NCBI GenBank assembly: GCA_963719225.1
Contig: CAVRAY010000001.1
Span: forward strand, 3,456,001-3,520,000
Direction: 5' to 3'
DNA from: Thermoanaerobaculia bacterium
GTDB taxonomy: Bacteria > Acidobacteriota > Thermoanaerobaculia > UBA5066
Length of the DNA: 64,000 nucleotides
The position numbers and the translations under genes were made by a program. This document shows, piece by piece, positions 11,304-42,300 of this stretch (its first letter is position 1; each line of letters opens with the position of its first letter). The notes beneath the pieces are model-generated. The model was given only the letters and a program-made list of their open reading frames with translations, did no database searches and was not told where the DNA came from.

Positions 11304-11320
11304 CGGGCGTCAGGTGACCC

Positions 11321-11863: not shown

Positions 11864-11891
11864 GAAGCATCCGGGTCCGCGGCGCTGGCTG

Positions 11892-13948: not shown

Positions 13949-13982
13949 TTGGTTTTCCCGCTCTGAAGGATAATCCGCCCCC

Positions 13983-14879: not shown

Positions 14880-14904
14880 TCGAGGCCCCGAGAGTCGCGC
14901 GCGC

Positions 14905-22519: not shown

Positions 22520-24541
22520 GTGACGACCCTCGGCCCGCGGAAGGGTTCACTCGCCTCCGCTCTCCTCGCCGCGGTCGCGGGAATCGTTCCAGCCTTAGCC
22601 GAAGCGGGGCCACGTGTCCCTCCGGTCGCTTCGTACACGATCGAGGCACAGGTGAAGGCCGACCACGGCATCACCGGGCGGGAGACGGTGCGCTTCACGA
22701 ATCGCACCCGGTTCTCGTTCGAGGATCTCCGCCTTCACCTCTACCTGAATGCCTGGAAGAACAACCGCTCTACGTGGCTCACCGAGCAGGCGCGCGGCGG
22801 CGGCAGGAACGACCGCGGAGTGCTGACGCCCGAGGCGAGCCGCTGGGGCTTTACCGAGATCCACCGGATCGCCCTCGAGGACGGCACCGACCTCACGCCG
22901 TCGCTGCAATACCTCTCGCCGGACGACGGGAATCCCGAGGACCGGACTCTCGTCTCGGTCGCGCTGCCGCGGCCCGTGGCGCCCGGCGAGACGCTCGTCT
23001 TTCGCGTGGACTGGGAGGGCCGGTTTCCGCGTGCGGTGGCGCGCACGGGCTGGAAGGACGACTACATCCTCGGCGCCCAGTGGTTTCCGAAGCTGGGTGT
23101 CGCGACCGACACGGGATGGAACGCGCACCAGTTCCACGCCGCGACCGAGTTCTTCGCCGACTTCGGCGACTACGACGTGACGCTCACGCTCCCGAAGGCC
23201 GTCAAGGGCCGCGTCGGCGCGACGGGCGTCTTCAAGGAAGAGGCCGAGATCCCCGGCGACCTCGTGCGTGTGCGCTTTCTGGCCGAGGACGTGCACGACT
23301 TCGCCTTCACGGCCTGCCCGCGCTTCGAGGTCGTGCGGGACACTTTCAGCGCGCCCGGCCTCCCGAACGTCGAGATCGTCCTGCTCCTGCAGCCCGACCA
23401 CCGCCGCGTCCGCGACCGGTATCTCAAGGCCGTCAAGGCCGCTCTCGCGGACTACGGGACGCGGTACGTCCCGTACCCCTACCCGCTCGTCACGGTCGTC
23501 GACCCGCCCTGGGGCAGCCACACGGAAGGCATGGAGTACCCGACCCTGTTCGTGGGCGGCGCGCACTGGCTCGCACCGGCCGCCGCGCATTCCCCCGAAG
23601 GTGTCACGATTCACGAGTTCGGCCACCAGGTGTTCTACGGAGTGCTCGCCTCGAACGAGTTCGAGGAAGCGCACCTCGACGAGGGTTTCAACACCTATGC
23701 GACGCTCCGGACGCACAAGGCCGCTTTCGGCGATCCGTCTCTCGTCGTGCGGTTCTTCGGCGTTCCTGTCGTGTTCCCTTCCGTGCCCCTGCCCCTCCCC
23801 ATGGCATTCAACGAGCGCTTCCACCGCTGGACGCAGGCCTCGCGGTCGGATGCGACGGACGTGCCGACCTTCCGCCAGCTCGACGGCAACGCCGTGCGCG
23901 TGAACGCTTACAACCGCACGGCTCTCCTCCTCGCCTCCGCCGAGCGCACCTTCGGCGAGAAGACGTGGGCGAAGGTCATGAAGACGTACGCGACGCGCTG
24001 GGCCTTCAAGCACCCCACCTCGGCGGACTTCCTCGCCGTCGTCGGCGAGGTCGCGGGCGAGGCGGCGACCCGAGCGATCGCGGAGATCTGGAAGACGCCG
24101 GGATCCGTGGACTACGCCGTGACGTCGGCCTCGGCGCATCGCGTGCGACCTCCGGCGGGATACACGGGTGAAGGCGAAGCGCGCACGCTCGCGATTCCCC
24201 GAGAAGGCGCGGGAAGCTGGGAGTCGACGGCCGTCGTCCAACGGCTCGGCGAGGCATCGTGGCCGGTCGAGGTGGAGCTGCGCTTCGCGGATGGAACGCG
24301 GGTCCGCCGCCCGTGGATCGGCGACGAGCGCTGGATCCGCTACCGCGCGACGGGTCCGAAGCTCCTCTCGGTGGAGGTCGATCCGGACGGCAAGTGCCTT
24401 CTCGACTCGAACCCTCTCAACAACGGACGTCGCACGGAGGAAGCGCCCGCAGCGTCGCGCCGCTGGAGCGCCCGCCTGCGCTTCTGGGCGCAGAACGTCC
24501 TCGAGCTCTTCGCCCTGCTCGGCTTCGCGGGGGCCGTATGA
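22520..24541 (+). CDS. Secreted M1-family zinc aminopeptidase
   Basis: GMEYP, HEFGH..NEFEEAHLDEG (HEXXH-x18-E), QWFPK; N-terminal signal peptide; start uncertain. Confidence 0.88.
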   Translation: MTTLGPRKGSLASALLAAVAGIVPALAEAGPRVPPVASYTIEAQVKADHGITGRETVRFTNRTRFSFEDLRLHLYLNAWKNNRSTWLTEQARGGGRNDRGVLTPEASRWGFTEIHRIALEDGTDLTPSLQYLSPDDGNPEDRTLVSVALPRPVAPGETLVFRVDWEGRFPRAVARTGWKDDYILGAQWFPKLGVATDTGWNAHQFHAATEFFADFGDYDVTLTLPKAVKGRVGATGVFKEEAEIPGDLVRVRFLAEDVHDFAFTACPRFEVVRDTFSAPGLPNVEIVLLLQPDHRRVRDRYLKAVKAALADYGTRYVPYPYPLVTVVDPPWGSHTEGMEYPTLFVGGAHWLAPAAAHSPEGVTIHEFGHQVFYGVLASNEFEEAHLDEGFNTYATLRTHKAAFGDPSLVVRFFGVPVVFPSVPLPLPMAFNERFHRWTQASRSDATDVPTFRQLDGNAVRVNAYNRTALLLASAERTFGEKTWAKVMKTYATRWAFKHPTSADFLAVVGEVAGEAATRAIAEIWKTPGSVDYAVTSASAHRVRPPAGYTGEGEARTLAIPREGAGSWESTAVVQRLGEASWPVEVELRFADGTRVRRPWIGDERWIRYRATGPKLLSVEVDPDGKCLLDSNPLNNGRRTEEAPAASRRWSARLRFWAQNVLELFALLGFAGAV

Positions 24542-25584
24542 CGCGCGATTCCGTCCCCGTCCTCGCGATGCGAGGCCTCGTCTCGGCCCTCGAGACGTGG
24601 AAAGCGCTCCTCCTTTTCCTCGTCCTGAACGCGGCGCTCGCGTTCGCCTTCACGCATCCTCTGGCGTCCGCGCTCCGGCAAACGCTCGACAAGAGCCCGT
24701 GGGCCGAACGCCTCGCGGCGGGCAACGCCGACCTCCACACGTTCTTCACCTCTTTTGCCCGCACGCGCCCCGACGTTCTCGGCGATCTTTCGAAATGGGA
24801 AGAGGCCGTGACGGGAGAGCGCCAGGAGAGGAGGCCTTCGGGACGGCCGGCGCCCCTCGCGGGTTTCTTCGAGACGTCCGGGCTCTCGGCCTCGGCCGTC
24901 GGGTTCGGGGTGCTGACGGCTCTTCTCGCGGCCCTCTTCTCGGGCGGATTTGCCGGTCGCTTCGGCTCCGAGCGCGAGCGCGCGAGCTTCTCCGCGTTCG
25001 GCGCGGACGTCGCGCGTTTCGCGGTTCCGTCGCTGCTGCTGGGGGCGGTCTCTCTCGGGGGGATCGTCGCCGCGTACCGCTTCCTCTTCGCGGCCACGGG
25101 CACTCTCTACGAACCCGACGAGCTCCGTTACGAGTGGGAGGCCGTCGGGCTCCTCCTTCTGCGGCTCGGGCTCTTCCTCCTCGTGGCGGGATACATCCGG
25201 CTCGTCGTCCTCTACGCGCGCGCGGCACTGGGACAAGGCACGCCGAATCCGATGAACGCGCTCATGCGCGGCCTCGGCTTCGTCCTCGGGAGGCCCGCGC
25301 GCACGCTCGCGCTGGAGATCGTCTTCGGCGGCCTCGGTCTCCTGCCCCTCCTCGCCTGGCTGTTCCTCGGCCCCGTCTGGGACGGCAAGCAGGTTGGCGA
25401 CTTCGCCCTGATCCTCGCCGGCCAGCAGGTCGTCGTCCTGCTGAGGATCCTGACGCGCGCCGGGCACCTGGGCGCGGCTTCTTCCTATCTCAGACGCTCG
25501 AACGAAGCGGACGCTTCGTCCCCGGCGCCCGCCGTCCGGGGTTCCGGCACGTCGCCGGAGCCCGCCTCCGCGCCCGTCCTGTGA
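24538..25584 (+). CDS. Hypothetical multi-pass membrane protein
   Basis: ATGA overlap with the M1 peptidase; several hydrophobic helices. Confidence 0.7.
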   Translation: MTRDSVPVLAMRGLVSALETWKALLLFLVLNAALAFAFTHPLASALRQTLDKSPWAERLAAGNADLHTFFTSFARTRPDVLGDLSKWEEAVTGERQERRPSGRPAPLAGFFETSGLSASAVGFGVLTALLAALFSGGFAGRFGSERERASFSAFGADVARFAVPSLLLGAVSLGGIVAAYRFLFAATGTLYEPDELRYEWEAVGLLLLRLGLFLLVAGYIRLVVLYARAALGQGTPNPMNALMRGLGFVLGRPARTLALEIVFGGLGLLPLLAWLFLGPVWDGKQVGDFALILAGQQVVVLLRILTRAGHLGAASSYLRRSNEADASSPAPAVRGSGTSPEPASAPVL

Positions 25585-26180
25585 ACGCGATCCGCCTGAG
25601 GTCCAAGACTCCCGAGTCGTGGGCGGCGCGCGTGACGGCCGTGGAGAACCTGCCCGCCTTCGTCGCGGACCACGCGGTCTGCGAGCTTCAGGCTTCGGTG
25701 CAGGCGCTCTCCCTCGTCGGCACGTACCCGCGGAACGCGGCGCTCGTCGACCGCCTCTCGGCGCTCGCGGCCGAAGAGCTGCGCCACTTCCGCAAGGTTT
25801 CGCGCGAAGCGCGCCGCCTGGGGGCGCCGATGCTCACGACGAGGCGCAATTTCTACGTGGCTGAGCTCCGCGCCGCGTGCCGCAGGGAACGCGAGCCCGA
25901 AAAGGGCCTCGACCTCCTGCTCGTCGCCGCGCTCATCGAGGCGCGCAGCCAGGAGAGGTTCGAGCGCCTTCTCGGGCAGTTGAAGGACGCGCGCCTCGCG
26001 CGGCTCTACGCGGAGCTCGCCGAGGCCGAGGCCCGGCACGGCCCGATCTATCTCGACCTCGCGATCGCCCATGCGGGGGAAGAGCCCGCGAAGAGCCGGC
26101 TCGAGGAGCTCCTCGACGTCGAGGCGCGTGTCCTCCTGCATCCGCCGAAGGTCGAGATCGCGGTCCACGGGGCGGCGTAG
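25581..26180 (+). CDS. miaE: tRNA-(ms2io6A37) hydroxylase, ferritin-like diiron
   Basis: DHAVCE, LAAEELRHF, LLVAALIEARSQERF, EARHG; GTGA overlap. Confidence 0.8.
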   Translation: MNAIRLRSKTPESWAARVTAVENLPAFVADHAVCELQASVQALSLVGTYPRNAALVDRLSALAAEELRHFRKVSREARRLGAPMLTTRRNFYVAELRAACRREREPEKGLDLLLVAALIEARSQERFERLLGQLKDARLARLYAELAEAEARHGPIYLDLAIAHAGEEPAKSRLEELLDVEARVLLHPPKVEIAVHGAA

Positions 26181-26718: not shown

Positions 26719-27861
26719 CTATCGCGCGGCGCCGACGGCGCGCGGCGAGGCTTCTCGGCTCCAGCGCGAGGACGGGAATCCCGAGGAGAGAAGCCGTCCC
26801 TTCAGGGAATACCTCACGATGTACGTGAACGGGTCGATTTCCTTCGAGAGGTAGCCGAACCGCACGTCCCGAAGCAGGACCTCCACCGAGTCGCCCCGCA
26901 CCTCCTCCCGGGCGGCGGGGAACCGTGCGAAGCGGCCGAACACGCCCGCGACGCCGTTCTCGAGCGTCGTGCGCGCCAGCGGACCGTTCGACTTCTCGAT
27001 GACCCGCGGCGCGAGGTCGTCGGGTGAACGGTAAACGCCGGCGAGATTCCGGAAGAGGTTCAGGGCGCCTCCGCGGAATCCCGTGCGCGCGAGCTCCTCG
27101 ATTTCAGCAGGACGGGAGATCTCGCGCCCCCGCTTGCCGAGATCCACGAACGTCGCGGTCACGGTGGATCCGTCGTCGGAGAGAAGGAGCCAACGGTCTG
27201 GCGATCCCGGCTGGGGAATCGCCGCGCGAGCCGACGAAAGGGGCGCGCGCTCCCGGCCGAGACGCAATGCCTCCCCATGCCGGACTCCGCAGAAAAGGAC
27301 ATACGCGGTCGCCGCGACGAGTCCCGCGCGCGCCGCGATTCTCGACCGCGGGAACGAACGTCTCGAGACGGCGCGGACCCCGACGAGGCCGAGCACGAGA
27401 AGCCCGGACAGGACCGCGTCGAGGATGAAAGTCCAGTCCAGCGAAAAGCGCGCCGAAGAGATCGGCGAGAGGAACATCGTGCCCCACGACGTGATCCAGT
27501 CGAGAAGAATGTGCGACACGAGACCGAGCGCGACGACGAGCCCCAGGCGTCTCATCGCCATTCGCCGGCCGGGGGCGCCGGGCGGGCCGAGCGCCGGCGA
27601 GAGGCGGATCGAGGCGAGAAGCGTGAGGACGACGACCCACGCCGGCAGCGTCACGAACGAGTGCGTGAACTCGCGGTGATGCGTGATGTAGAACTCGGCG
27701 GAAAAAGGCGACAGGAAGACGTCGGCATCCGGGAACGTCGCCGCGGCGAAACCCACCCAGGCCTCGCGCCGCGCGAGCGTGCGGTCGAGCGCTTCGTCCC
27801 CCGTGGACGGCACGGCGCGTGCGAGGAGGGCGCCGGCGAGGCCATGGGTGAGGGTATCCAT
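26719..27861 (-). CDS. YdjM-like metal-dependent membrane hydrolase
   Basis: MDTLTH, PDAD, HREFTHS, SHILLD..TSWG motifs. Confidence 0.85.
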   Translation of the reverse strand: MDTLTHGLAGALLARAVPSTGDEALDRTLARREAWVGFAAATFPDADVFLSPFSAEFYITHHREFTHSFVTLPAWVVVLTLLASIRLSPALGPPGAPGRRMAMRRLGLVVALGLVSHILLDWITSWGTMFLSPISSARFSLDWTFILDAVLSGLLVLGLVGVRAVSRRSFPRSRIAARAGLVAATAYVLFCGVRHGEALRLGRERAPLSSARAAIPQPGSPDRWLLLSDDGSTVTATFVDLGKRGREISRPAEIEELARTGFRGGALNLFRNLAGVYRSPDDLAPRVIEKSNGPLARTTLENGVAGVFGRFARFPAAREEVRGDSVEVLLRDVRFGYLSKEIDPFTYIVRYSLKGRLLSSGFPSSRWSREASPRAVGAAR

Positions 27862-27909: not shown

Positions 27910-30852
27910 TCAGAACGAGACGCGCAGTCCTGCTCGGAAAGACCGTGGTGGAGAGCGCCACGTGACTTGTCCGTACGTTGGATTGTCTTGCTTCTGTTTC
28001 GGGTCGTAGATCGTGCCCGGGTACCCGGCTGGCGGTAAATCGGACCCCCAGACCTCGTCGACCGTGGTCGCGATCTGGTTGTTGAAGACGTTGTAGACGT
28101 ATGCCTGAAGTGTCGCGGTCACCGGCCCGAAGACGATCGGATATGCCAGCTGGAGGTTGGCCTCCCAAAGGGTCGGCAGGCGCCCCGCCGAGCCGCGCGG
28201 CTCGAGATAAATGGCCGGCCCGTAATTCCCGTTGAAGTACCCCAGCTTGTTGTACGGCGCTCCCGACTCGGCGAACGCCTGGACTCCGATCGAAAGCCGC
28301 CTCGGTGTCACCCAGTAGCCATCCAGCCGAAAGCGGTTCGGCCGGTCGAGAGCGAGCGTTCCGTAGGCGTTGTGCCACTTCGCGGGATAGGAGAACGCCC
28401 CGGTGATGCCCGGAGATGTCTCATTGTGGCCAGCCTCGTTGATGCCGCCGTCGAAGTTGCCGCGCAGCGAGGAATAGACATAGCTTGCCTGGAGCCAGAG
28501 CCGATCCCCGAGAGATTGCCGCGCGACGACCTCGATGCCACGGTACAGCCGCCGTGCTGGCGGCGAAGCGGGGCCCGTAGGCGAGCACTCGTTGTCGGGA
28601 GGGTCGAGGCCGTTGCAGGTTGGAACGGCTCCGCTTGCGAACTTCCCGTTCGACCCGGGGTTGATGACGGCGAGAGAGCTGTAATTGGTCAGAGGGCTCG
28701 TGTAGTCGAGGTCGCCTCGCACCGCGATGGCGTTGTTCAGACTCCTGTAAGTCCCCTTGACGCCAACCGTCAGTCCGGGTCCGAGCACACGTTCGATGCC
28801 TACGAGGAATTCGTTCTGGGAGAAGCCCTTGAGGCCGGCATCCACCGGCAAGCTGATGCCGCCCGTCGAAACACTGGCCCTCTCGTGGTGAAGCACGCTC
28901 GGGTCCTGAACGACGCTCACGGAGTCGAGGTTGTACGACGTGACCGTTGTGTAGCTGTTGAAGATACTGGTGGCGGCGGCCGTCGGCAGCGCGTAGGAGA
29001 AGCGTCCGGCAGACGCGTACACCTTCGTGGCGCCGTTCCGCCAGGGGTCCCATGCGACGCCGATCCGAGGCTGCCACTGGGTGTTGTCCTGAAAAACCGT
29101 CTGCCCGGCGTAATTGCGCGTGGTCTCGCCGTCCCAGCGGAGCCCCAGGTTGACTGTGAGGCCCGGGGCCGCCTTCCACGTATCCTGGAGGTAGGCGCCG
29201 TAGTCGAGCACCTCGGCGCCAATGTGAAGGCTCGGAATCGGGGTCGGGTCGGCTGTGCTCGCCGCGAAAAACTGGTGCACGTAGTAGGTCTGCCCCCACT
29301 CGTTGCGCACATTCACGGCCTGCTCGCCCGTCCTGGCGACTATCTGGTCCGACCGACCGTTCATGTAATCGCCGCCTACCTTGATCTCGTGCGGGCCGAT
29401 GTAAAACGTGGCGGCGGCGCTCACCTGCCCGCGAGAGGAGACGTTGTTGTCGCCTCCGGGGATGGGTCCGTAGCCGCCCGTGATGGAGTTTGGCCGCGAA
29501 TTGGGTGGGGCCTTACAGGGAGCGCCGGGCGTACCGCCGGCGCACGTAAAGTCCTGGTACCGGACCTCGTCGGCTGCCGTCAGGCTGCTGCGGTCCCGAT
29601 GATAGGAGCCCTGCAGGTTCGTCAGGACATCAGCCCCGAAGAGCCGGGTTCCCCGGACACCGTAATCGGCGCCCCCCTGCGACCGAGTGGAATCCCAGGT
29701 GGATGGCACGGGGCTCACGGGCGGAAAGACGAGCATGAAGGCAGCGTCCCGCCGAGGGTCCGCTCCCGAAAGGCCCGAAGTCGAGGATGGATCCGCGAAC
29801 ACGCTGCCGACGACCGAGGTCGAAGCTGTGGCGTTCCAGGTGAGCTTCAGCGAATACAGGTTGTCCACGGCGGCGAACGGGAACTGGTCGTCCTTCGAGA
29901 CAAACGCCGAGGACTCGAGCCTCGACACATGGCCGTCGAGTGACACGCGGTCGTAGGCGCCGAAAAACCACAGACGGTCCTTCAGGAGATACCCGCCGAG
30001 AGCCGCTCCATAGTCGAAGCGAGACCCGTCGTCGGTCTTCATCGCGACGAGTGTCGTGTCTACGACCCCGGTCCGCCGCCGCGCCGCGGTTTCCGAAGAG
30101 TCGTAGTAGACGAAGCCGTCGCCATGAAAATCGTTGCCGCCCGACTTCGTGACGGCGTTGATCACGCCCCCGAGGGCGCGGCCGTACTCGGCCTGGTAGC
30201 CGCCCGTCTTCACCTCGACCTCCTGGACGAACTCGTTGCTCAACGCCTTGCCTTGGGTCCCCTTGTTGACGCTGGTGGTGTTGACGCCGTCGATGATCCA
30301 CTGATTCTCGGCCGAGGTTGCCCCGTAGATCGTCAGAGGGAGCATGCGGCCGTCCGTATAGCCGCGGTCGGTCGAGACGCCGGGATTCGAACGTACGATT
30401 TCGGCATAGTTGCGGTCGACGGGGAGATGGCCGATGACCCCGCTCGTGTACTTCGTGCCGGTCGTCGTCGAGGTCACATCGATCGGCGGGGCCTCGCCGG
30501 AGACGATGACCTGCGTCTCCGCCTCGAGCCGCATCGTGAGATCCACGGTCATGGCGGAGCCGAGCGACACCGTGCACGCCTTGTCGGCCGGCCGAAAGCC
30601 GGACAGCCTTGCCAGAATGCGATAGGTACCCGGTGGAATCGCCGGGATTCGGTACAGGCCGTCGTGGCTGGTCACGCTGACGCGTGCTCCCTGGAGGCTC
30701 GGGCTCGTGGCCTCGACCGCGACACCGGGAACGGGCGCCCCCGAGGCGTCGGTCACGCGGCCGGAGATGTCGCCTGTCGTCTGAGCCACCGCGACCGCCC
30801 CCGGGAAGACGATGGCCGCGGCAACAACGAGGAAAAAGTACGTCCGTCCCAT
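27910..30852 (-). CDS. TonB-dependent receptor, Oar-like, with N-terminal carboxypeptidase-regulatory-like domain
   Basis: Signal peptide, GDISGRVTD..GVAVEATSP, plug (NQWIIDG..EVEVKTGGYQAEYGRALGGVIN), YLQDTW..NLGLRWD, terminal RVSF. Confidence 0.9.
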   Translation of the reverse strand: MGRTYFFLVVAAAIVFPGAVAVAQTTGDISGRVTDASGAPVPGVAVEATSPSLQGARVSVTSHDGLYRIPAIPPGTYRILARLSGFRPADKACTVSLGSAMTVDLTMRLEAETQVIVSGEAPPIDVTSTTTGTKYTSGVIGHLPVDRNYAEIVRSNPGVSTDRGYTDGRMLPLTIYGATSAENQWIIDGVNTTSVNKGTQGKALSNEFVQEVEVKTGGYQAEYGRALGGVINAVTKSGGNDFHGDGFVYYDSSETAARRRTGVVDTTLVAMKTDDGSRFDYGAALGGYLLKDRLWFFGAYDRVSLDGHVSRLESSAFVSKDDQFPFAAVDNLYSLKLTWNATASTSVVGSVFADPSSTSGLSGADPRRDAAFMLVFPPVSPVPSTWDSTRSQGGADYGVRGTRLFGADVLTNLQGSYHRDRSSLTAADEVRYQDFTCAGGTPGAPCKAPPNSRPNSITGGYGPIPGGDNNVSSRGQVSAAATFYIGPHEIKVGGDYMNGRSDQIVARTGEQAVNVRNEWGQTYYVHQFFAASTADPTPIPSLHIGAEVLDYGAYLQDTWKAAPGLTVNLGLRWDGETTRNYAGQTVFQDNTQWQPRIGVAWDPWRNGATKVYASAGRFSYALPTAAATSIFNSYTTVTSYNLDSVSVVQDPSVLHHERASVSTGGISLPVDAGLKGFSQNEFLVGIERVLGPGLTVGVKGTYRSLNNAIAVRGDLDYTSPLTNYSSLAVINPGSNGKFASGAVPTCNGLDPPDNECSPTGPASPPARRLYRGIEVVARQSLGDRLWLQASYVYSSLRGNFDGGINEAGHNETSPGITGAFSYPAKWHNAYGTLALDRPNRFRLDGYWVTPRRLSIGVQAFAESGAPYNKLGYFNGNYGPAIYLEPRGSAGRLPTLWEANLQLAYPIVFGPVTATLQAYVYNVFNNQIATTVDEVWGSDLPPAGYPGTIYDPKQKQDNPTYGQVTWRSPPRSFRAGLRVSF

Positions 30853-30870
30853 ACATTCCCTCCTGCCGAG

Positions 30871-33744
30871 CTACGGCGACGTGGCCTGGGGTAGGAAATT
30901 CTCGAAGACCCAGATGCCTTGATCCGGGAAGCCCGACGTAAACGCAATGCGGCCCCCGTCCGGGCTTACACGCACATCGCGTAACGCGGGCATCGAGAGC
31001 CCGAGGCTGCGCGCCGGTCCCCCGTCAAACGGCACCGTCCAGAGTTCGCCATGTTGCTTTTGCTCCTTACCAACGGGGACGGTGCGAACAAACAGGACGT
31101 GTCTTCCGTCGCGCGTCCATCCTCCGGCGGCAAGCCGGCTCGGTCTGGGCACATTGACGAGCTCTCTAGAGCCGCCCCCGCGCGTCGGAATCACAATCAA
31201 CCGGGAACTTTTCGCTTGACGCATGTTGAGGTTAAAGGCGAGCCAGCGGCCATCGGGGGAGATGGATAGATTTCCCAGGATGGAATCCGGAGGCGGCTCG
31301 TAGACGAGCTCTTCCTCTCCGGTCTTCGTGTCGATTCTCGAGATGCGCTGCGGGTCGCGTCTCAAGTAGGCGTGTCTTTCATCCGGGCCCCAGGCGACGC
31401 TGTTGAACGCGGGCACATCGCCAGGCTGGGAGAGAAACGTGGACACAATGCTTCCCGACTCGGCGTCGACCAGTCGAAGTCCGTGGACTCCCCTCCGGTC
31501 TGCACCTCCGATGGCAATCGATCGCCCGTCGGGAGACCAGCGCGTCCCGTTGACGAAATCCACATCCAACTCGAGCTCTCGCTCGCGCCCCGTAGCCATG
31601 GAATGGAGTACCAGAATGTTCCGTCCCGGTCCAAACAACGTCCGCCACGAGGCAAAGACAAGGGTGTTTCCATCGGGAGACCAGTCCGGAGAGATGTTCG
31701 AGCCAAGGAAGCTGCCTGCGGCGTTGGTCGGCTTGTCTTTGATCTCCGCAGTGACTGGATCGATCGGGACTGTGTAGACATCCATCAGGCCCGTTCTGTG
31801 GTTGTAGAAGAGAGATCCTTGCCGGGTGAGCGTGATAGGACCGAAGGGTCCCATGTCTTTGTCCAGAAACCGGGGCTGCCCGTCGGGCCGCCCGTCCTTG
31901 ATCGGCTGCAGCCAGAGTCCCGGTCCGCCGGTGCGCATGCTCGCAAACACCAGGCCCGCGCCGTCCGGCGTCCACATGGGATGTGAATCGTACGTCGGCC
32001 CTGTCACGACGGCGGTCTCCTGGCTCGCGTCGGTCGTTGAAAGGTAAATCCCGCGGTTCGTGTCGCCGGAGTTTTCGGCTCGGTCGTACGCGATGGTACG
32101 GTTGTCAGGCGACAGCGTTACCTTCCAGGGGCTACGCTCGAAGGTCCGGACGGGACGTACCGAACCGTCTAGCGCGGATATCAATATGACCTCGGTTTCG
32201 CTCGCGCCGCGCTGGCGCGTTCCAAGGATCTGGCGGCCGTCGAAAGACCACTCGAGGGGAAGTATCTCGGTCCCACCCTTGCCCCTGTAAAGGACGCGCG
32301 AGTTGACGCCCCCCGCGTCTATCACGCGAAGCTGATTGCACCCGCAGGATGCGTCAACCCAGTTATAGGCAACCTGGCTGCTATCGGCCGAGAGGATGGA
32401 TTCCGTCGCATAGTTCTCGTGGCCTCCATCTCCATCTTTCGTCAGAACGCGGCTGACGCCGGTCGCGAACTCGTAGATCGCCAGGTTCCCTGTCGCCAGC
32501 TCGGAGTAGGGGAAGTACTTTCCGTCCGGGGATGGCGTGCCCGCCACCATGACGGGGGGAATCTGCACCGCGCGTTTCTCCTGAGTCACGCCGACGTAAG
32601 GCGTACGGCCTCCCCGTGAACGCCCATCCCGATCAGCGTCGCCACGCCGCAAGAACGGGGAGACCGCGAGAGCGATCGCGATCAGCGAGACGGCCCCCAG
32701 GGCGAGCCCGTAGCGCTTCTTTTTGAGCGCCTCCGTCTCGCCCTGCAGGCCCTCGAGTGCAGCGAGCATCTCGCGGCTGGATTCGAACCGCTCCGAAGGA
32801 TTGGGATGAATGGCGCGGCTGATCGTGGCCGCAAGAGCCTTGCTCACGCCGGGAGCTAGCGTCACGAGGTCCAGCCGCTCGCCCCGCACGTGTGCCGCAC
32901 CGACGTCCTTGACGGTCGCTCCTCGAACCGGGTACATGCCGGTGAGGAGATGGAAGAGCACGACGCCCGTGCTGTAGATATCGGTCCGAACCGTCGCCTG
33001 CTCACCGTTGAAAATCTCCGGCGCGAGGTACAACGGCGTCCCGGCCGCATCCACAATGCAGGACGGTGTCTCTTCCAGCTCCCGCCCCGTCCCAAAATCC
33101 ATCAGGACCAGGCGTCCGTCGGCGGCCTGCATCAGATTCTGCGTCTTGATGTCGCGGTGGAGGAGGCCGGCGTCGTGCACCGCCGAAAGCGCCCTGCAAA
33201 GCTCGATACCAATCCGCGTCACCTCGGGTTCATCGAATCTCTTTCTTTCGTTGAGAATCTGCTCGAGATTGCGGCCGTGGATGAATTCCATCCACAGACC
33301 GACTCGGCCTTCGAGCTCGTCGGCATCGTAAACGGTAACGACGTTTGGGTGGCGAACACGCGCAAGCAGGCGCGCTTCCTTGAGAACGGTGGCTCCTTCG
33401 GGTTGCACTCTGCCGGCTTGTAAGAGCTTGACCGCCACTTCGCGGTCGAGCTTTGAATCCCAGGCGCGGTAAACCTCGCCGAACGATCCCTGCCCGATGC
33501 ATTCGCGGATCTCCAGCCTTCCCCAGCGCTCCAGTCTTCCCTTCGGGACCTCGGGCCGTGCGAGCTCCGGGATGTCGTAGATCAGGTTCCGGTGAAGTTC
33601 GGCGATGCCCGCCAGGACTTTGAGTTGCCGGACAGCTTCGCGTTCCGGCCCGCCTGAAGACGACTCCGCGGAGACCCAGTCGACGGCGTGTCCTTCGAGA
33701 ACGGCTTCCGCCAGCTCGTCGAGCGGCTGGCCTTCACCTTCCAC
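30871..33744 (-). CDS. Hanks-type Ser/Thr kinase with TM helix and extracytoplasmic PD40/TolB-like beta-propeller
   Basis: IGQGSFGEV, VAVK, HRDIKTQN, DFG, GTPLYLAPE; TM helix YGLALGAVSLIAIALAV; repeated (W/L)SPDG motifs; GTG 33744 overlaps the ECF end. Confidence 0.9.
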   Translation of the reverse strand: MEGEGQPLDELAEAVLEGHAVDWVSAESSSGGPEREAVRQLKVLAGIAELHRNLIYDIPELARPEVPKGRLERWGRLEIRECIGQGSFGEVYRAWDSKLDREVAVKLLQAGRVQPEGATVLKEARLLARVRHPNVVTVYDADELEGRVGLWMEFIHGRNLEQILNERKRFDEPEVTRIGIELCRALSAVHDAGLLHRDIKTQNLMQAADGRLVLMDFGTGRELEETPSCIVDAAGTPLYLAPEIFNGEQATVRTDIYSTGVVLFHLLTGMYPVRGATVKDVGAAHVRGERLDLVTLAPGVSKALAATISRAIHPNPSERFESSREMLAALEGLQGETEALKKKRYGLALGAVSLIAIALAVSPFLRRGDADRDGRSRGGRTPYVGVTQEKRAVQIPPVMVAGTPSPDGKYFPYSELATGNLAIYEFATGVSRVLTKDGDGGHENYATESILSADSSQVAYNWVDASCGCNQLRVIDAGGVNSRVLYRGKGGTEILPLEWSFDGRQILGTRQRGASETEVILISALDGSVRPVRTFERSPWKVTLSPDNRTIAYDRAENSGDTNRGIYLSTTDASQETAVVTGPTYDSHPMWTPDGAGLVFASMRTGGPGLWLQPIKDGRPDGQPRFLDKDMGPFGPITLTRQGSLFYNHRTGLMDVYTVPIDPVTAEIKDKPTNAAGSFLGSNISPDWSPDGNTLVFASWRTLFGPGRNILVLHSMATGRERELELDVDFVNGTRWSPDGRSIAIGGADRRGVHGLRLVDAESGSIVSTFLSQPGDVPAFNSVAWGPDERHAYLRRDPQRISRIDTKTGEEELVYEPPPDSILGNLSISPDGRWLAFNLNMRQAKSSRLIVIPTRGGGSRELVNVPRPSRLAAGGWTRDGRHVLFVRTVPVGKEQKQHGELWTVPFDGGPARSLGLSMPALRDVRVSPDGGRIAFTSGFPDQGIWVFENFLPQATSP

Positions 33745-34348
33745 GGGCCATCTCCTCGGCGAGACGCACCAGAGCGCGCTTCGTCGCCTTGTGCGCGGCG
33801 CCTGAAGTCGGCTTTCCGAGCAGGCGGGCGAGCTCCTCGTACGTATAGCCCAGCTCGACACGGAGAATGATCGCTTCGCGCTCCTCCGGCCGCAGCCGGC
33901 CGAGAGCGTCCTCGTAGCGCTCGATTTCCGCCATGCCAACCGCTTCCTCGAGGGGCGACCGTGCCTTGCCGACCTCGGTCCCCTCGAGCTCCATGTGCGC
34001 GGGCCTCCTCGCCACGCGGCGAATCTCGTCGCGGATACGGTTCATCACGGCCTGCCGGAGGTAGGCCTGCAGCGCCCCCTCCCGCTCGGGTTCGAACACA
34101 TCCATCCTGTTAAACGTCTGAAGCAGGGTTTCCTGGACAAGATCCTGCGTGTCGGCCAGATCGCGCGCCCATCGCGGCAGCCGCCCCTTCGCCCAACGCT
34201 GCAGCCGGGGAAGGTGCCGCGCGAAGAGCCGCTCGAGCGCCTGCCTGTCCCCGCTGCGAAAGCGCGCAATGAGCTGGAAGGTGGATTCCGCCTCGCCTGC
34301 GGGGTCGAATTCAGAGCCCGCACTGCCGGGTTCGGGAGACTTCTTCAT
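33734..34348 (-). CDS. ECF RNA polymerase sigma factor
   Basis: DTQDLVQET, AYLRQAVMNRIRD, LRPEEREAIILR..GYTYEELA..RALVRL. Confidence 0.9.
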   Translation of the reverse strand: MKKSPEPGSAGSEFDPAGEAESTFQLIARFRSGDRQALERLFARHLPRLQRWAKGRLPRWARDLADTQDLVQETLLQTFNRMDVFEPEREGALQAYLRQAVMNRIRDEIRRVARRPAHMELEGTEVGKARSPLEEAVGMAEIERYEDALGRLRPEEREAIILRVELGYTYEELARLLGKPTSGAAHKATKRALVRLAEEMARGR

Positions 34349-34476
34349 GAATACGGGACGACTTGGCGGCGATTCTAGTCCGCGGCTCCCCCAAAGCGAT
34401 TTCCACCAGCTTTTCAGCGATTTGGTGTCCAGAAATCTCTTCGGCGTCGTTAGTAGTGGGTGCGACGGTGAAGAGA

Positions 34477-34725
34477 ATGGACAGTTCTTCGGCCCCGAGA
34501 AGCAGTGACCCCGACACTGAGCTGCGCCGGCGCTTCTCGCTTACTCCCTCGGAAGCACGTATCGCTCTCCTGCTCGCCGAGGGCCTCTCTTATGCCGAGG
34601 TGGCCGACCGCCTCGGGGTCTCCTACCACACCGTGCACACGCACGTGAAAGCGATCCACGAGAAGGTGAACGTCAAGAGCAACGGCCGGCTGCTCGCGCT
34701 CATCCGGAAGGTGGAGGAACGCTGA
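34477..34725 (+). CDS. Stand-alone LuxR-type HTH protein
   Basis: LTPSEARIALLLAEGLSYAEVADRLGVSYHTVHTHVKAIHEK. Confidence 0.8.
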   Translation: MDSSSAPRSSDPDTELRRRFSLTPSEARIALLLAEGLSYAEVADRLGVSYHTVHTHVKAIHEKVNVKSNGRLLALIRKVEER

Positions 34726-34979
34726 GGTGTCCCGAAGGCAGGCAGAAAAATCTACCCAGTTCTGGCGATGGCCTGGGCGACCGGCCGGGAATAGGGTAAG
34801 CGTCAGTCAATCGCAGAAACAACTCTGAATCCAGCCTTGGGGCTCTCGGAGCAGTGCCACCCCTCGGAAACCGGGAGGCAAACATGCACTCTGCAGGTGG
34901 ATCTTCTGACCACGAGCGGCTGAACGACAAGCGGGAATCGAACCCTCAAGAGTGCCTAACTGAGGCGCTGCCGAAGAAG

Positions 34980-37900
34980 ATGCTCAGGGTCTTTCCAGCC
35001 GCAGCGGCTTCGGCTTGCGTGGGGCTGCTCTTGTTAGCGGTCTTTCTCCTGAATCGCTCCGCCACGGACCAGGATCGAGACAACCCCGCGGCTCCTGCCT
35101 CGGGCAAGAGAGTCGCCGTGACGCGCGCTCTCGAGCGCATGCCGCTCTACTTCATCGAGAATCGCGGCCAGCTCGATTCTCGCGTGGCCTATTACGTTCA
35201 GGGACGGGACACGACTCTCTACTTCACTGCCGAAGGAATGACGCTCGTCCAGACCGAGCGAAATCGCGGAGAACAAGGTTCGAAAAGGAAGCTGGAGAAG
35301 GCGTCGTTCAGTCGAGGCACCCCAGCACCGGAGGCGGGGAAACGTTCGGTCGTCAAGCTCGATTTCGTCGGAGCAAACCCGAATCCGGAGATCACGGCGA
35401 GCGACAAACGGCCTGCAGTCGTCAGCTACTTCAAGGGACGGCAGGAGAATTGGAAGGCAGGTCTCTCGACCTACCGCTCGATTGTCTACTCCGAACTCTG
35501 GCCAGGCATTGATCTGGTCTATTCCGGGGCGGCCAACCGGCTCAAGTACAGGTTTCTCTTGAAGCCAGGGGCCGACCCAACCCAAGTGAGGCTTGCGTAT
35601 CGCGGAGTCCATAAGATCCGCTTGAACGACGTGGGGCAGCTCGAAGTCGAGACACCTGCGGGAGGATTCCGGGACGACAAGCCGTGCGCCTGGCAGGAAG
35701 TCGACGGGCGTCGCGTGGAGACCGACGTAGCGTACTCGCTCGATCGGGCCTCAGCCAACGGACCGCACGGGTACGGATTCGCACTGGGCCCCTATGACCG
35801 TAGCAAGCCCCTCGTCCTCGACCCGGCTGTGCTCGTCTATGCCGGCTACATCGGTGGCAGCAGCAACGAGAACGGCAACGCCCAGGCCGGCATCGCCGTG
35901 GACAGCTCCGGCAACGCCTATGTCACGGGCTCCACGGATTCCACCGACTTCCCCGTCACCGTCGGGCCCGATCTGACTTTCAACGGAACGCGGGACGCCT
36001 TCGTGGCGAAGGTCAATGCGGCCGGCACCGCGCTCGTCTATGCGGGCTACATCGGGGGCAGCGGGGACGACACTGGCAACGGCGTCGCGGTGGACAGCGC
36101 CGGCAACGCCTACGTCACGGGCCAGACCGGCTCCACAGAAGCCACGTTTCCCGTCACCGTCGGGCCCGGCCTGACATACAACGGCGACAACTCCGACGCT
36201 TTCGTCGCGAAGGTCAATGCCGGCGGTACCGCGCTCGTCTACTGCGGATACATCGGCAGCATCAGAAGCGATTTCGGCAACGGCATCGCGGTGGACAGTT
36301 TCGGTAACGCCTACGTCACGGGGGCAATCTTTTCGGCGACGTCCGAGTGGGACACCTTCGTGGCGAAGGTCAAGGCCGATGGCACCGCCCTCGACTACTT
36401 CAGAGGTATCGGCGGCAGCGGTAGCGAGGTTGGCTACGGCATCGCGGTGGACAGCTCCGGCAACGCCTATGTCACGGGATACACAAATTCCACGAACTTC
36501 CCGGTGACCGTCGGGCCGGGCATGACTTACCAGAACAATGTCGACGCCTTCGTGGCGAAGCTCAACGCTACCGGCACAGGGCTCGTCTACTCAGGCTACA
36601 TCGGCGGCAGCGGCCAGGATGTCGGCACCGCCATCGCCGTGGACAGTTCCTGCAACGCCTACGTCACTGGACACACCCTCTCGGACGAGAGCACGTTCCC
36701 TGTGACCGTGGGACCGGACCTCACGTACAACGGCGGCTTCGATGCGTTCGTGACGAAGGTCAACATCGACGGTAGCGCGCTCGTGTACTGCGGCTACATT
36801 GGTGGCGGTCGCACCGACGCGGCCTACGGCATTGCGGTGGACACTGCCGGCAACGCTTATGTCACGGGAGAAACGGGCTCCGATGAGACTACATTCCCCG
36901 TGATCGGAGGACCCGACCTTGCATTTCACGGGCCCGGCGACGACGCCTTCGTGGCAAAGGTGAATGCCGCCGGCACCGCGCTCGTGTACTGCGGCTACAT
37001 CGGCGGCAGCGGCGTCGATGCTGCCTTCGGCATCGCGGTGGACGGTGCCGGTAATGCCTATGTCACTGGAGAAACCGACTCCACTGAGGCCACATTTCCC
37101 GTGACCGTCGGGCCGAGCCTGAGCTTCCGCGGTGGCAACGACGCCTTCGTCGCGAAGATCGCAGAGGTCACTCCACCTACCCCTACGCCGACGGATACGC
37201 CGACGAGCACGCCATCCGTGCTGCCGACGGACACTCCGATGCTTACGCCCACTCAGACACCGACCAATACGCCGACGCCTCTTCCGTGCGGTCCGATTCC
37301 CAACGAGTATCCGGTCCCCGCGGGTGGTAGCAATCCTATCGGCATCGCCGCGGGGCCGGATGGCAACCTCTGGTTTACGGAACACAGCGGCAACAAGATC
37401 GGACGGATCACTACCGGAGGCGTCATCACGGAATTCACCATTCCCACGGCGAACAGCGGTCCTCGCGGCATCACCGCGGGGCCGGATGGCGCCCTCTGGT
37501 TCACCGAACTCGGCGGCAACAAGATCGGCCAGATCACCACCGGCGGCGTTATCACGGATTTCACAGTTCCCACAGCTGTCAGCTTTTCGTTCGGCATCGC
37601 CGCGGGACCGGACGGTGCTCTCTGGTTCACCGAGATGAACAGCAACCAGATCGGCCGGATCACTACCGCGGGTGTCATCACGGAATTCGCAATCCCCACG
37701 GCTGGCAGCAATCCTGTCGGCATCACCGCGGGCCCGGATGGAGCCCTCTGGTTCACCGAGTACAACGGCGGCAAGATCGGCCAGATCACCACCGGCGGCG
37801 TCATTACCGAATTTCCCGCCGGCAGTAATCCTTTCGCTATCACCGCGGGGTCAGATGGCACACTCTGGTTCACGCAGAACAACAAGATCGGCCAGATCAC

Positions 37901-38525
37901 TACCGGGGGCGTCATCGCGGAATTCGCGGTTGCCAGCGCTGGCGGAGGCATCGCCGGCATCACCACAGGGCCAGATGGCACGCTCTGGTTCACGGAAACG
38001 AACGCCAACAAGATCGGTCGGATCACCACCGCCGGCGTCATCACGGAATTTACGGTCCCCACGGGTGGCAGCAATCCTTTCGCCATTGCTGCGGGGCCAG
38101 ATGGCGCCCTCTGGTTCACTGAGTACATCGGCAACAAGATTGGCCGCATCTGCACGTCGGCAACGCCAAACCCGACGAGCAGTCCGACGCCGACCCACAC
38201 GCCGACTGGAACTCCGACCAACACGCCAACGTCCACACCGACGAGTACCCCGACCGCGACCGCGACTCCGACGGCCACCGCGACGAGCACGCCGACGAGT
38301 ACGCCAAGTAACACCCCCACCAACACGCCGACGCCGACCAGCAGTCCAACCATCACACCAACGAACACACCGACGAACACCGCGACACCGACCTTTACGC
38401 CGACCCGCACACCAACGATTACGCCAACGCCGGGCAACACTCCAGTGCCGACCAATACACCGAGGCCGACGCACACCCCGAAGCCGACGCACACCCCGAG
38501 GCCGACGAAGACGCCAAAACCGTGA
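34980..38525 (+). CDS. Large surface protein: N-terminal FIENRGQ domain, 7 SBBP propeller repeats, 7 Vgb-like repeats, Pro/Thr-rich tail
   Basis: [26 protein letters not shown], 7x (G/A)(I/V)AVDxxxNAYVTG, 7x GxDGxLWFT, TPT tail; start uncertain (34854-34980). Confidence 0.85.
35820..37160 (+). repeat. Intragenic tandem repeats (~7 x ~190 bp; SBBP propeller blades)
   Basis: Recurrent gcggtggacag..ggcaacgcctatgtcacgg and ttcgtggcgaaggtcaa; boundaries approximate. Confidence 0.85.
37310..38150 (+). repeat. Intragenic tandem repeats (~7 x ~120 bp; Vgb-like blades)
   Basis: Recurrent ctctggttcac..aacaagatcggcc.gatcac; boundaries approximate. Confidence 0.85.
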
Positions 38526-39285: not shown

Positions 39286-39373
39286 GACAAGACGGCTCGC
39301 TATCCACCACGCGGTGCGCTTGCGCTGGTGGGAGAACAGATATCAGGAAACTAGCCCTGGTCGGGGTGAAGGT

Positions 39374-42300
39374 GTGACTATAAACACGGGCTTCCGCTTC
39401 CGTCAGCGGTCCTTCATAGCTGTCGCGAGGCGTCGCTGGGTTCTGTCTTTCGGTCTGGCGCCGGTCCTGCTACTAGCGACCCTTGCCCTGAACTGCTCTA
39501 CCGATCTGGCCCGGGTAAGGCCCTACAGCGATTTGTCCTTGAAGCCCGCCTCCCTTCACGAGGGGCACCAGCCCGCAGCTTCCGCCTCGGAGAAGAAAAT
39601 CGCCGTGACGCGAGTTCTCGAGCGGATGCCGATCTACTTCATCGAGAATCGCGGCCAGCTCGATTCACGGGTGGCCTACTACGTCCAGCGTGGGGACACG
39701 GCTCTGTACTTCACTGCCGACGGGATGACCCTCGTGCAAACCGACCAGAGGCATGGAGAAAACGGCCCGGAGGGCGGGCTGGAGAAGACATCGCTCGTTC
39801 GGAACGGCATGCCGACACCGGAGGCAGGGAGCCGATGGGCTGTCAAGCTCGATTTCGTTGGAGCAAACCCGAGCCCCAGTATCCAAGCAAAGGATCCAAC
39901 ACCCGCCATCGTCAGCTACTTCAAGGGCCCGAAGGAGAACTGGAAGGCGGCCCTCTCAACGTATGGCTCGATCATCTACTCCGATCTCTGGCCGGGAATT
40001 GATCTGGTCTATTCCGGAACGGCCAACCGCCTCAAGTACACCTTCCTTGTGAAGCCTGGGGCAGATTCGGCGCAGGTTAGGCTGGCGTATCGAGGCGTCC
40101 ATGGGATCCGGTTGAACGAAGCCGGGCAGCTAGAAATCGAGACACCTGCGGGACGTCTCCAGGACGACAAGCCGTATGCGTTTCAGGAGATCGATGGGCG
40201 CCGCGTCCAAATTGACGCGGCATATTCGCTCGATCCGTTGGGAGCCGCAGCGTCATACCGATATGGATTCGCAATCGGGTCCTATGACCGCGCTAAGCCT
40301 CTGGTGCTCGACCCGACAGTGCTCGTTTATTGCGGGTACATTGGTGGTAGCGGTTTCGATCAAGGCCGCAGTATCGCGGTGGACACTTCGGGCAACGCCT
40401 ATGTCACGGGACGAACCGGCTCCTCCGAGCCCACGTTCCCCGTGACCGTCGGGCCGGACCTGACCTACAACGGCGGCGGCGTAAACGGCAACACTGATGC
40501 CTTCGTGGCGAAGGTCAACGCCGCCGGCACCGCCCTCGTCTACTGTGGCTACATCGGCGGCGGCGACTATGATGAAGGCTACGGCATCGCGGTGGATAGC
40601 TCGGGCAACGCCTATGTCACGGGAGTAACCTCCTCGACCGAGGCCACGTTTCCCGTGACCGTCGGGCCGGGCCTGACCTTCGGCGGCGGCACCTATGACG
40701 CTTTCGTGGCGAAGGTCAACGCCGCCGGCACCGCCCTCGTCTACTGCGGCTACATCGGCGGCAGCGGAGGCGAGCAAGGTAACGGCATCGCGGTGGACAG
40801 CTCGGGCAACGCCTATGTCACGGGGCAAACCAGCTCCGCCGAGGACACGTTCCCAGTGACTGTGGGGCCCGACCTTACCTTCAACGGGCCCTTCGGCGGC
40901 GGTTCGGACGCCTTCGTAGCGAAAGTCAACGCCGCCGGCACCGCGCTCGTCTACTGCGGCTACATCGGCGGCGGCTATGCGGATGCTGGCTACGGTATCG
41001 CGGTGGACAGTTCGGACAACGCTTATCTCACGGGATTGACCCAATCGCCCGAGACCTTTCCCGGCCTATTCCCCGTAACCGTGGGGCCGGCCCTGACCTA
41101 CAGCGGCGGCGAGGATGCCTTCGTAGCGAAGGTCAACGCCGCCGGCACCGCCCTCGTCTACTGCGGCTATATCGGCGGCACGGGCTTGGATCAAGGCACG
41201 GGAATCGCGGTGGGCTCTTCAGGCAACGCCTATGTCATTGGGACCACTTCCTCCACCGAGACAACATTCCCCGTGACCGTCGGACCCAACCCGACGTACA
41301 ACGGCGGCCCCCATGACACTTTCCTAGCAAAGGTCAACGCAGCCGGCACCGCGCTCGATTACTGCGGTTACATCGGCGGCAGCGGCAACGATTTTGGCCG
41401 GGGTATCGCGGTTGACAGTTTGGGTAACGCCTATGCCACGGGGGAAACCACCTCCACCGAGGCCACGTTCCCAGTAATGGTCGGGCCGGACCTAACCTTC
41501 AATGGCCCTCTCGGCGGATCCAACGCCTTCGTCGCAAAGGTCAACGCCGCCGGCACTACGTTGGTGTACTGCGGCTATATCGGCGGCAGCAAAGGTGGCG
41601 AGAGTGGCCAGGGCATCGCGGTGGACAGTTCGGGCAATGCATATGTCACGGGATCCGCCGATTCCGATGAGACAACGTTCCCGGTGACCGCCGGACCAGA
41701 CCTGACCTTTGACGGCGGCAGCGACGCCTTCGTTGCGAAAATCGGGACCAGCTGTTTGCCTCGGGCCGGTCCTTTGGCATCGAACAACGGCCCGATCTGC
41801 GCAGGTCACACGCTGCAGCTTGCGGCGTCGCCAATTTCGGGGGCGACATATAACTGGACGGGGCCAAACAGCTTCACTTCGAACCTTCAGAACCCGACGA
41901 TTCTGGCCGCCACGTCGGCCGCGGCCGGAACTTACAGCGTCACGGCGACAGTCGGCGGCTGCACGTCGCCGGCCGGGACGACTGCGGCCGTCGTCAACCC
42001 GACCCCGGCTACTCCGGTCATCACGGCGCCAGCGAACACGGCCGGGGGGACGAGAGGTTTGTCAGCGTCGGTGGTTCCACACGCGGGGGGCAGCTGGTTC
42101 TGGACGGTCCAGAACGGCACCGTCACGGCGGGGCAGGGGACGAGCCAGATTACCTTCACCGCGGGGAGCATCCCCGAACCACTGACTCTCTCGGTCATGG
42201 ACACGAATGCCTCAGGATGTGTGAGCGCACCGGGAATCGCCTCCGTTGCGATTGATCCGTTCGGACCGCCGTACCTCTTCTACACGGTAACGCCGTGTCG

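Follow-up and report, generated by a model that had tools for sequence, protein, structure and literature searches.

An acidobacterial ECF sigma factor with an intact acidic motif and its Hanks-type kinase: a conserved pair with a predicted region 4 contact and a TonB-dependent receptor as likely co-regulated output

Among extracytoplasmic function (ECF) sigma factors that are paired with kinases, only group ECF43 is understood, where phosphorylation restores a missing negative charge. The sigma2.2 motif of this group is charge-less (consensus QTTA, and QATE in EcfK) and the phosphorylated threonine is the residue at position 3, according to the accessible parts of PMC13147305 and PMC8999054. 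Groups that retain the acidic motif must, according to the accessible part of PMC8999054, work differently. The locus described here lies in a stretch of 64,000 nucleotides (nt) from a Thermoanaerobaculia bacterium (GCA_963719225.1, contig CAVRAY010000001.1, positions 3,456,001 to 3,520,000), referred to below as the window, and represents a large acidobacterial family in which the acidic motif is kept. It comprises the genes for an ECF sigma factor, a Hanks-type Ser/Thr kinase and an Oar-type TonB-dependent receptor, and the reading preferred here, to which we assign a rough probability of 0.6, is that the kinase controls the sigma factor directly while the receptor is a co-regulated output.

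The three genes are arranged head-to-tail on the minus strand in the order sigma factor, kinase, receptor, as follows (all feature coordinates are positions within the window).

33734-34348, minus strand: ECF sigma factor gene, 204 amino acids (aa), from the open reading frame (ORF) and its translation
30871-33744, minus strand: Hanks-type Ser/Thr kinase gene, 957 aa, GTG start at 33744 and TAG stop at 30871-30873
27910-30852, minus strand: Oar-type TonB-dependent receptor gene, 980 aa, ATG at 30852

The start of the kinase gene precedes the stop codon of the sigma gene (TGA, 33734-33736), giving an overlap of 11 nt, and the spacer between kinase and receptor is 18 nt long (ctcggcAGGAGGGaatgt) and contains a Shine-Dalgarno-like AGGAGGG. 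No space is left for another gene between the three, which, judged from these distances, are one tight three-gene operon. An earlier note on this DNA had described the same tight linkage, overlap and ribosome-binding site, all of which the sequence bears out, and had also claimed that an anti-sigma gene was missing; a Pfam scan of the operon and 12 flanking ORFs detected no anti-sigma domain (FecR, zf-HC2 or RskA). The sigma factor carries Sigma70_r2 (residues 41-114, 45.1 bits) and Sigma70_r4_2 (residues 143-195, 36.4 bits) and scored above the cut-offs of the ECF models, with 25.6 bits for Sigma70_ECF PF07638 (cut-off 21.1) and 76.8 bits for NCBIfam TIGR02937 (cut-off 42.9). With regions 2 and 4 only, it is an ECF (group 4) sigma-70 factor.

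Direct control by the kinase would proceed as follows. The N-terminal module of the kinase would hold region 4 of the sigma factor and tether it at the membrane, acting as a substrate dock, as an in-built anti-sigma domain, or as both. A periplasmic signal read by the propellers of the kinase would switch its activity, and phosphorylation would free or activate the sigma factor, with Thr67, Ser131 and Ser22/Thr23 as candidate sites. The sigma gene itself would, in our reading, be under a housekeeping-like TAGAAT box. The active sigma factor would use the sequence TGTCCrG-N12-16-CGTTTA, of which a divergent copy would drive a GerE-type gene and an intragenic copy would raise the expression of kinase and receptor, that of the sigma factor not being raised.

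The pairing of sigma factor and kinase was evaluated across genomes. Of 8000 scored candidate relatives of the sigma factor 7979 had E <= 1e-10, and clustering of the representatives at 50% identity gave 450 clusters with E <= 1e-30. One genome per species was scanned, which confirmed 434 loci; of these the best 79 (1.24 Mb, not independent of each other) were examined, with genes called as plain ORFs (first start after a stop) and the G+C content at third codon positions as a guide. These loci mostly carried Acidobacteriota labels (Vicinamibacteria and Thermoanaerobaculia), and three were labelled as actinobacterial metagenome-assembled genomes. A kinase ORF was located directly 3' of the sigma gene on the same strand in 72 of the 79 loci, and the seven exceptions consisted of two contig ends, one locus where less than 1 kb of sequence remained, a frameshift fusion and three loci with the cognate kinase nearby in a different gene order. 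Since adjacency was found in 72 of 79 loci and the exceptions were accounted for, the pairing is taken as a family trait. The survey proposed in the earlier note thus showed a recurrence beyond chance, and the alignments and gene order support sigma factor and kinase as a conserved functional pair in a large acidobacterial family of kinase-paired ECFs.

The cognate kinases share a stretch in front of the catalytic domain, which in the window is located as follows.

33577-33723, minus strand: three-helix N-terminal module of the kinase, residues 8-56, from structure model and alignment

In the predicted structure the helices span residues 8-17, 23-29 and 32-56 at a predicted local distance difference test score (pLDDT) of about 86 and are followed by a disordered linker (57-67). 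The module was conserved in all 39 aligned family kinases with the consensus L..LA.AILDG.P[VI]DW..AES.A.....R.L..QLKVLA..A..HR. Across the loci it was found in all cognate kinases and in none of nine unrelated kinases, and its hidden Markov model (HMM) matched a single one of the about 65 kinases in this genome, that of the window. What had been noted earlier as a short helical N-terminal extension is therefore a hallmark of the cognate kinases. A search with the 39 members returned no sequence relatives in Pfam, and none were found in PDB (best E 0.54); a feature search of the Atlas with the module returned only unnamed short proteins.

A complex of the ECF with kinase residues 1-70 was modelled, as the earlier note had suggested, in three runs along with three controls. 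The complex scored 0.80, 0.82 and 0.82 while the best control scored 0.01; in a benchmark, 116 of 157 solved complexes attained the score mark, as did 2 of 215 mismatched pairs. The runs shared at least 89% of their contacts, with a partner pLDDT of at least 74. On the sigma side the predicted interface consists of residues 132-145, 163-167 and 186-204, which represent region 4 and the end of the linker, in addition to residues 51-55, and on the kinase side of helices 1 and 3 of the module. The N-terminal module is therefore predicted to bind region 4 and so to tether the sigma factor to the kinase.

Two tandem kinases follow the sigma gene in L008, L011 and L021 (about 9560-15080; labels with L denote the examined loci), each with the family N-terminal module. 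In the search of representatives, P0139 (949 aa) had a family sigma factor fused straight to a kinase domain with the module absent, a lone and unchecked example that would agree with a docking role, and P0179, P0212 and P0250 had sigma factor, module and kinase in one frame, as either true fusions or frame errors.

The sigma2.2 motif of the window sigma factor reads D66-T67-Q68-D69, followed by LVQE, in agreement with the DTQD of the earlier note, which had proposed that the threonine is a switch of the EcfP type.

34148-34150, minus strand: codon of Thr67, position 2 of the DxxD motif, from the sequence

Thr67 was kept in 149 of 151 family representatives and in 22/22 sequences of a smaller alignment. 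The flanking acidic positions were conserved as well, with Asp at position 69 in 149/151 and Asp or Glu at position 66 in 136/151, and position 68 was Asp in 62, Gln in 21 and Glu in 18 representatives (acidic in 80/151). The signature of the family is therefore [DE]-T-x-D-L-V-Q-[DE], in which the acidic contact residues are retained. Further conserved hydroxyl sites were Ser/Thr23 (144/151) and Ser131 (138/151), the latter in front of Pro132 (136/151). Among ECFs of the same genome, DTQD was found only in the window sigma factor of those compared, and of the 14 ordinary ECFs that could be aligned, 13 had Ala and one had Pro at position 2. Five other sigma genes of this genome (G000, contig C1, outside the window) have charge-less ECF43-like motifs, namely TTTA, SPTT, QPTA twice and APTG, and each of them adjoins a Ser/Thr kinase gene as matched by a kinase search.

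361730-362317, plus strand: ECF43-like sigma gene
2280388-2280954, minus strand: ECF43-like sigma gene
2467591-2468136, minus strand: ECF43-like sigma gene
1537569-1538162, minus strand: ECF43-like sigma gene
3608799-3609368, plus strand: ECF43-like sigma gene

The Gly loop was located in four of the five partner kinases, and the helical N-terminal stretches in front of it are of another sequence type. As read from the alignments, Thr67 is a real hallmark of the family, yet not the phosphosite of EcfP; the near invariance that the proposed switch called for was found, while the acids are kept and the threonine is at position 2 instead of the position 3 of ECF43.

Of the alternatives, the one that survives best, and which we still regard as unlikely, is a control of the ECF43 kind in which no tether is involved. 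The sigma factor would be intrinsically weak, phosphorylation at Thr67 or in the linker around Ser131 would make it bind core RNA polymerase more tightly, and the module would aid the regulation or dimerisation of the kinase only. The conserved Ser/Thr residues at 23, 67 and 131 are consistent with this, as is the direct phosphorylation that has been shown for EcfP/PknT and EcfK/PknS, where EcfK additionally needs T106 in the linker (PMC13147305, in the part accessible). PknS, too, begins with about 81 residues for which three to four helices are predicted. Against this alternative, no residue of the DxxDxxQE contact motif has been lost, and more than half of the representatives have an acid at position 3 in any case; groups keeping a DAED-like motif may work differently (PMC8999054, again as far as accessible), and the complex model, which far outscored its controls, predicts that the module binds region 4.

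A DNA motif was found in association with the pair. It is bipartite, enriched 5' of the family sigma genes, and reads on its favoured strand TGTCC[AG]G-N12-16-[CT]GTTT?A (family form TGTCCrG-N12-16-CGTTTA). The regular expression matched 96 times in the 79 loci, both strands being searched, whereas the whole 4.75-Mb genome has five matches, two of them in this locus. The 96 matches were distributed as 46 within sigma genes, 28 just upstream of the sigma gene pointing away from it, and 22 elsewhere. The copies in the window and the features next to them are the following.

34111-34139, minus strand: intragenic motif copy, TGTCCAGGAAACCCTGCTTCAGACGTTTA, inside the sigma gene on its sense strand, over codons L-V-Q-E-T-L-L-Q-T-F
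34426-34452, plus strand: divergent motif copy, TGTCCAGAAATCTCTTCGGCGTCGTTA, with 24 nt between its end and the ATG of the GerE-type gene, conserved in orthologous loci
34372-34377, minus strand: TAGAAT box, candidate housekeeping-type -10 element, 23 nt before the start codon of the sigma gene
34477-34725, plus strand: small stand-alone GerE/LuxR-type helix-turn-helix gene, 82 aa, divergent from the sigma gene (Pfam GerE, E 7e-11)

A position weight matrix (PWM) was trained on the loci with the window excluded, about 2 of the 52 training sites being intragenic copies. The intragenic copy of the window was the best match to it in the whole 4.75-Mb genome (score 22.6) and the divergent copy the third best (score 20.3). 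The second-best match (C1:2786835) is located on the start codon of an unrelated gene and was discarded as a chance hit. Synonymous codon use at the intragenic copy was biased in the direction of the motif, both at 62 sites and in a set of 13 representatives of less than 70% identity.

Leu as CTT at the intragenic motif: 50/62 versus background 85/1288; less-identical set (13) 10/13 versus 12/255
Phe as TTT at the intragenic motif: 42/62 versus background 29/204; less-identical set (13) 9/13 versus 6/42
Thr as ACG at the intragenic motif: 55/62 versus background 149/363; less-identical set (13) 12/13 versus 34/75

This bias indicates that the DNA element itself is under selection, and the intragenic copy likely serves as an internal promoter from which kinase and receptor are transcribed. 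There is a precedent in rpoE-rseA of E. coli, where the regulator is fed by an ECF-dependent promoter within the sigma gene. A literature search on ECF internal promoters returned nothing about this sigma-kinase family.

The orientation of the motif was considered separately. A first reading as TAACGA-N11-TTTCTsGAC toward the sigma gene was dropped, as the wider family shows TAAAC[GA]-N16/17-[CT]GGACA, and the gene positions then favoured the reverse strand of the latter. Where sigma gene and kinase are apart (L010, L039 and L058), a copy is located directly before the kinase. Genes for proteins of about 360 aa with Big_2 and CarboxypepD_reg domains are preceded by a copy on either side of the pair, being divergent from the sigma gene in L011, L016, L021 and L027 (copy 382 nt away in the last) and located after the kinase in L057, L069 and L056 (copy some 370 nt away in the last), while in L067 a copy is followed by such a gene and then by an Oar-type receptor in an operon. 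Among the 22 copies elsewhere an ORF of at least 150 aa follows in the favoured direction in 11 cases and in the opposite direction in five. Because of the copies before separated kinases and before the Big_2 genes and the 11 versus five ORFs, there is moderate evidence for an orientation in which TGTCC would be the -35 and CGTTTA the -10 element. The TGTCC element resembles the -35 of TGTC/GTC-type ECF promoters in the accessible part of the PMC7826278 supplement. The Big_2 and CarboxypepD_reg family recurs beside the pairs of L011, L016, L021, L027, L056, L057, L067 and L069.

Of 57 upstream regions from the family, 18 contained TAGAAT and 14 TAAGAT, where 0.8 and 0.4 were expected. The GerE-type gene is a predicted local target of the sigma factor. 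It has a counterpart in this position in L005 and L006 alone, with a weak match in L032, and was for this reason rejected as the owner of the motif. Beyond it are located two DUF7948 and SBBP beta-propeller proteins (34854-38525 and 39314-42646, plus strand, 1223 and 1110 aa), followed by another TonB-dependent receptor of smaller size (42708-44585, plus strand). SBBP-type genes are also divergent from the sigma gene in L003 and L007, and the SBBP proteins and this second receptor may belong to the same regulon.

Several points weigh against direct control of the sigma factor by its kinase and against the promoter assignments that accompany it. The complex score is a measure of model confidence. 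Because ECF/anti-sigma complexes are among the solved structures, the score may also partly reflect fold likeness to them. Thr67 may be structural, since solved ECFs align Val, Val or Ala with it, and Ser131-Pro-Leu-Glu and Ser22-Thr23 resemble helix caps in our reading. The ORF calls were crude, with frameshifted kinases in 16 loci, and the loci examined were the best 79 of 434 and non-independent. For only 12 of the 28 copies upstream of the sigma gene is there a divergent ORF (150 aa or longer) no more than 200 nt away. Read in reverse (TAAACG-N-GGACA), these 28 copies could be ordinary autoregulatory promoters, with the intragenic copy in antisense. The PWM search detected no separate motif before the receptor in the same-strand cases (0/10), and only one of the 12 convergent neighbouring receptors, that of L067, has a motif upstream.

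The catalytic and sensory parts of the kinase are located as follows.

32782-33510, minus strand: kinase catalytic domain, residues 79-321 (Pfam Pkinase, E 7e-48)
32647-32709, minus strand: single transmembrane helix, about residues 346-366, from hydropathy
30874-32562, minus strand: periplasmic PD40 beta-propeller region, residues 395-957 (Pfam PD40, E 8e-22, and structure model)

The residues K106, E123, H196-R197-D198, N203 and D216-F217-G218 were invariant across the 39 aligned family kinases, as were the Hanks motifs G84/G86/G89 and A241-P242-E243, and the transmembrane segment was the only 19-residue window with a mean hydropathy above 1.6. Intact catalytic motifs and a transmembrane helix had both been claimed before and stood up in the alignment and the hydropathy profile. 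A single large PD40 propeller had been claimed as well; the extracytoplasmic PD40 region is present, while the model of residues 395-957 is all-beta with about 45 strands (pLDDT 80.4) and, because its best Foldseek matches are double propellers, the periplasmic part likely consists of two propellers rather than one. Sensor types differed within the family, with TPR in 30, PD40 in seven and neither in one of the 38 intact kinases.

The receptor has a signal peptide-like N-terminus, CarboxypepD_reg (residues 29-108), Plug (135-230), OMP_b-brl_4 and a TonB barrel, and is of the Oar type by its matches to PF13620, PF07715, PF25183 and PF00593. An STN signalling domain was found by Pfam neither in the receptor nor in 20 neighbouring proteins scanned, nor in any of the 15 neighbouring receptors with a barrel. 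The earlier note had called for a survey of receptor conservation next to ECF-kinase pairs, and the outcome was divided. An orthologous receptor (phmmer E = 0) directly follows the kinase in L001, L002, L003, L005 and L007, at a sigma identity of 79-91%, and is absent after the kinase in L004 and in L028 (sigma 83% identical), and thus was present in five of the seven close orthologues with enough DNA. In the family at large, an Oar-type receptor, recognised by Pfam or orthology, was located within 7 kb downstream of the sigma gene in 14 of 61 loci, plus five probable fragments, versus within 7 kb upstream in five of 62, and 42 to 47 of the 61 loci were without a receptor within 7 kb. As phmmer with the receptor query aligned mostly the N-terminal domain of distant receptors, the counts were rechecked by Pfam. 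The sigma gene and the cognate kinase flank the receptor in L020 and L052. Judged from these gene orders, the link of the receptor to the pair is recurrent but optional across the family.

A surface signalling system in which FecR is dispensed with, as proposed in the earlier note, would have the propellers sense the ligand state of the receptor and the kinase activate the sigma factor via Thr67, so that the receptor is both input and output. Its co-transcription over the 18-nt gap, the downstream excess of receptors, the sandwiched receptors of L020 and L052 and the near invariance of Thr67 all agree with such a system, which we nevertheless consider improbable. Neither this receptor nor its 15 barrel-bearing counterparts have the STN domain, the majority of family loci have no receptor nearby, and most family kinases have TPR in place of PD40. 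L001 and L003 (sigma identity 91% and 86%, cytoplasmic part of the kinase 73%) keep sigma factor and receptor and have a TPR sensor, and because of this swap a propeller-specific contact with the receptor is argued against; L004 and L028 keep the pair without a receptor. With the sigma2.2 acids kept, the charge-switch logic of EcfP is inapplicable. The proposal of TonB signalling through the receptor is thus left unsupported, and TonB-receptor sensing through the kinase is speculative. A combined form, with a kinase that holds region 4, propellers that read the state of the receptor, release by phosphorylation and a promoter hidden in the sigma gene through which the freed sigma factor would amplify sensor and receptor, is very doubtful. 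The receptor is likely cargo or a co-regulated output of the switch rather than its sensor. A literature search on a link between kinases, ECFs and TonB in Acidobacteria returned nothing about this family.

Least credible is a receptor that is a mere neighbour, on the same transcript by chance gene order and with no functional tie: it is absent in two of seven close orthologues, with some 20 genes for Oar-like receptors in the genome chance adjacency is not rare, and the motif precedes few convergent receptors, but the 18-nt gap with its own ribosome-binding site leaves no space for a terminator, the same orthologous receptor is in place in five loci, receptors are in excess downstream over upstream, and the order in L020 and L052 encloses them.

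If the module does clamp region 4, the kinase would be its own anti-sigma factor or substrate dock. There are dozens of such kinases in Acidobacteria (about 65 in this genome), and a rule that links a kinase to its sigma factor would help to read their genomes. What is new here is the predicted region 4-binding module of the kinase and the promoter-like motif in the sigma gene, a conserved DNA element with a putative function; part of this may be covered by Iyer et al. 2020 (Nat Microbiol), which is said to be a survey of kinase domains and of Ser/Thr residues near the motif.

Elsewhere in the window, a gene for a YdjM-family inner-membrane protein (26719-27861, minus strand) is located 48 nt 3' of the receptor on the same strand, and none was seen downstream in the orthologous loci. 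A 670-aa ORF (24168-26180, plus strand) has a MiaE (tRNA hydroxylase) domain confined to residues 477-660, and its long N-terminal part is without a Pfam match, with an over-long ORF call being possible.

The groups ECF43, ECF59-62, ECF217 and ECF283 were compared with the present pair by their published descriptions, as far as these were accessible. A close likeness is to ECF43, represented by EcfP-PknT of Vibrio parahaemolyticus and EcfK-PknS of Xanthomonas citri, with which the pair shares a Hanks kinase at position +1 with one transmembrane helix and an extracytoplasmic repeat domain, the lack of a separate anti-sigma gene and a sigma factor of the PF07638 type. Also alike are the helical stretch before the kinase domain, which in the accessible description of PknS has 81 residues with three to four predicted helices and a flexible linker, and a GTC in the predicted -35 element (PMC7826278 supplement, in part). 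In contrast, ECF43 has lost the acidic DAED residues, whereas D66 and D69 are kept here and the threonine is at position 2. The uncharged sigma2.2 motif with a position 3 threonine is thus lacking, and because this defining loss fails here the pair is set apart from ECF43. The five kinases that partner ECF43-like sigma factors in this genome gave no match to the module HMM, and ECF43 is from Proteobacteria while the present family is from Acidobacteriota.

ECF62 of Planctomycetes likewise has its kinase at position +1, and this kinase has a single transmembrane helix, propeller sensors of the WD40 type and an additional element at its N-terminus (PMC7826278 supplement, in part). The ECF62 kinases differ in that this element is a zinc finger, while residues 1-70 of the window kinase contain no Cys and hence no such zinc site, and in that a conserved promoter motif is not reported for ECF62 in the accessible part of that supplement. 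With FecI-FecR-FecA the locus shares an ECF gene that adjoins the gene for a TonB-dependent receptor which it likely co-regulates. It differs from that system in having neither a FecR-like anti-sigma factor nor an STN domain in the receptor, in the middle position of the kinase, and in a receptor without family-wide conservation. Class I anti-sigma factors, for which we take RseA with sigma-E (PDB 1OR7) as the example, offer a further likeness in a small helical cytoplasmic module of a single-pass protein, here predicted to lie over region 4 and to touch region 2. The present module differs from these in having three helices only and no sequence similarity in Pfam or PDB, and in being fused to a kinase rather than released by proteolysis.

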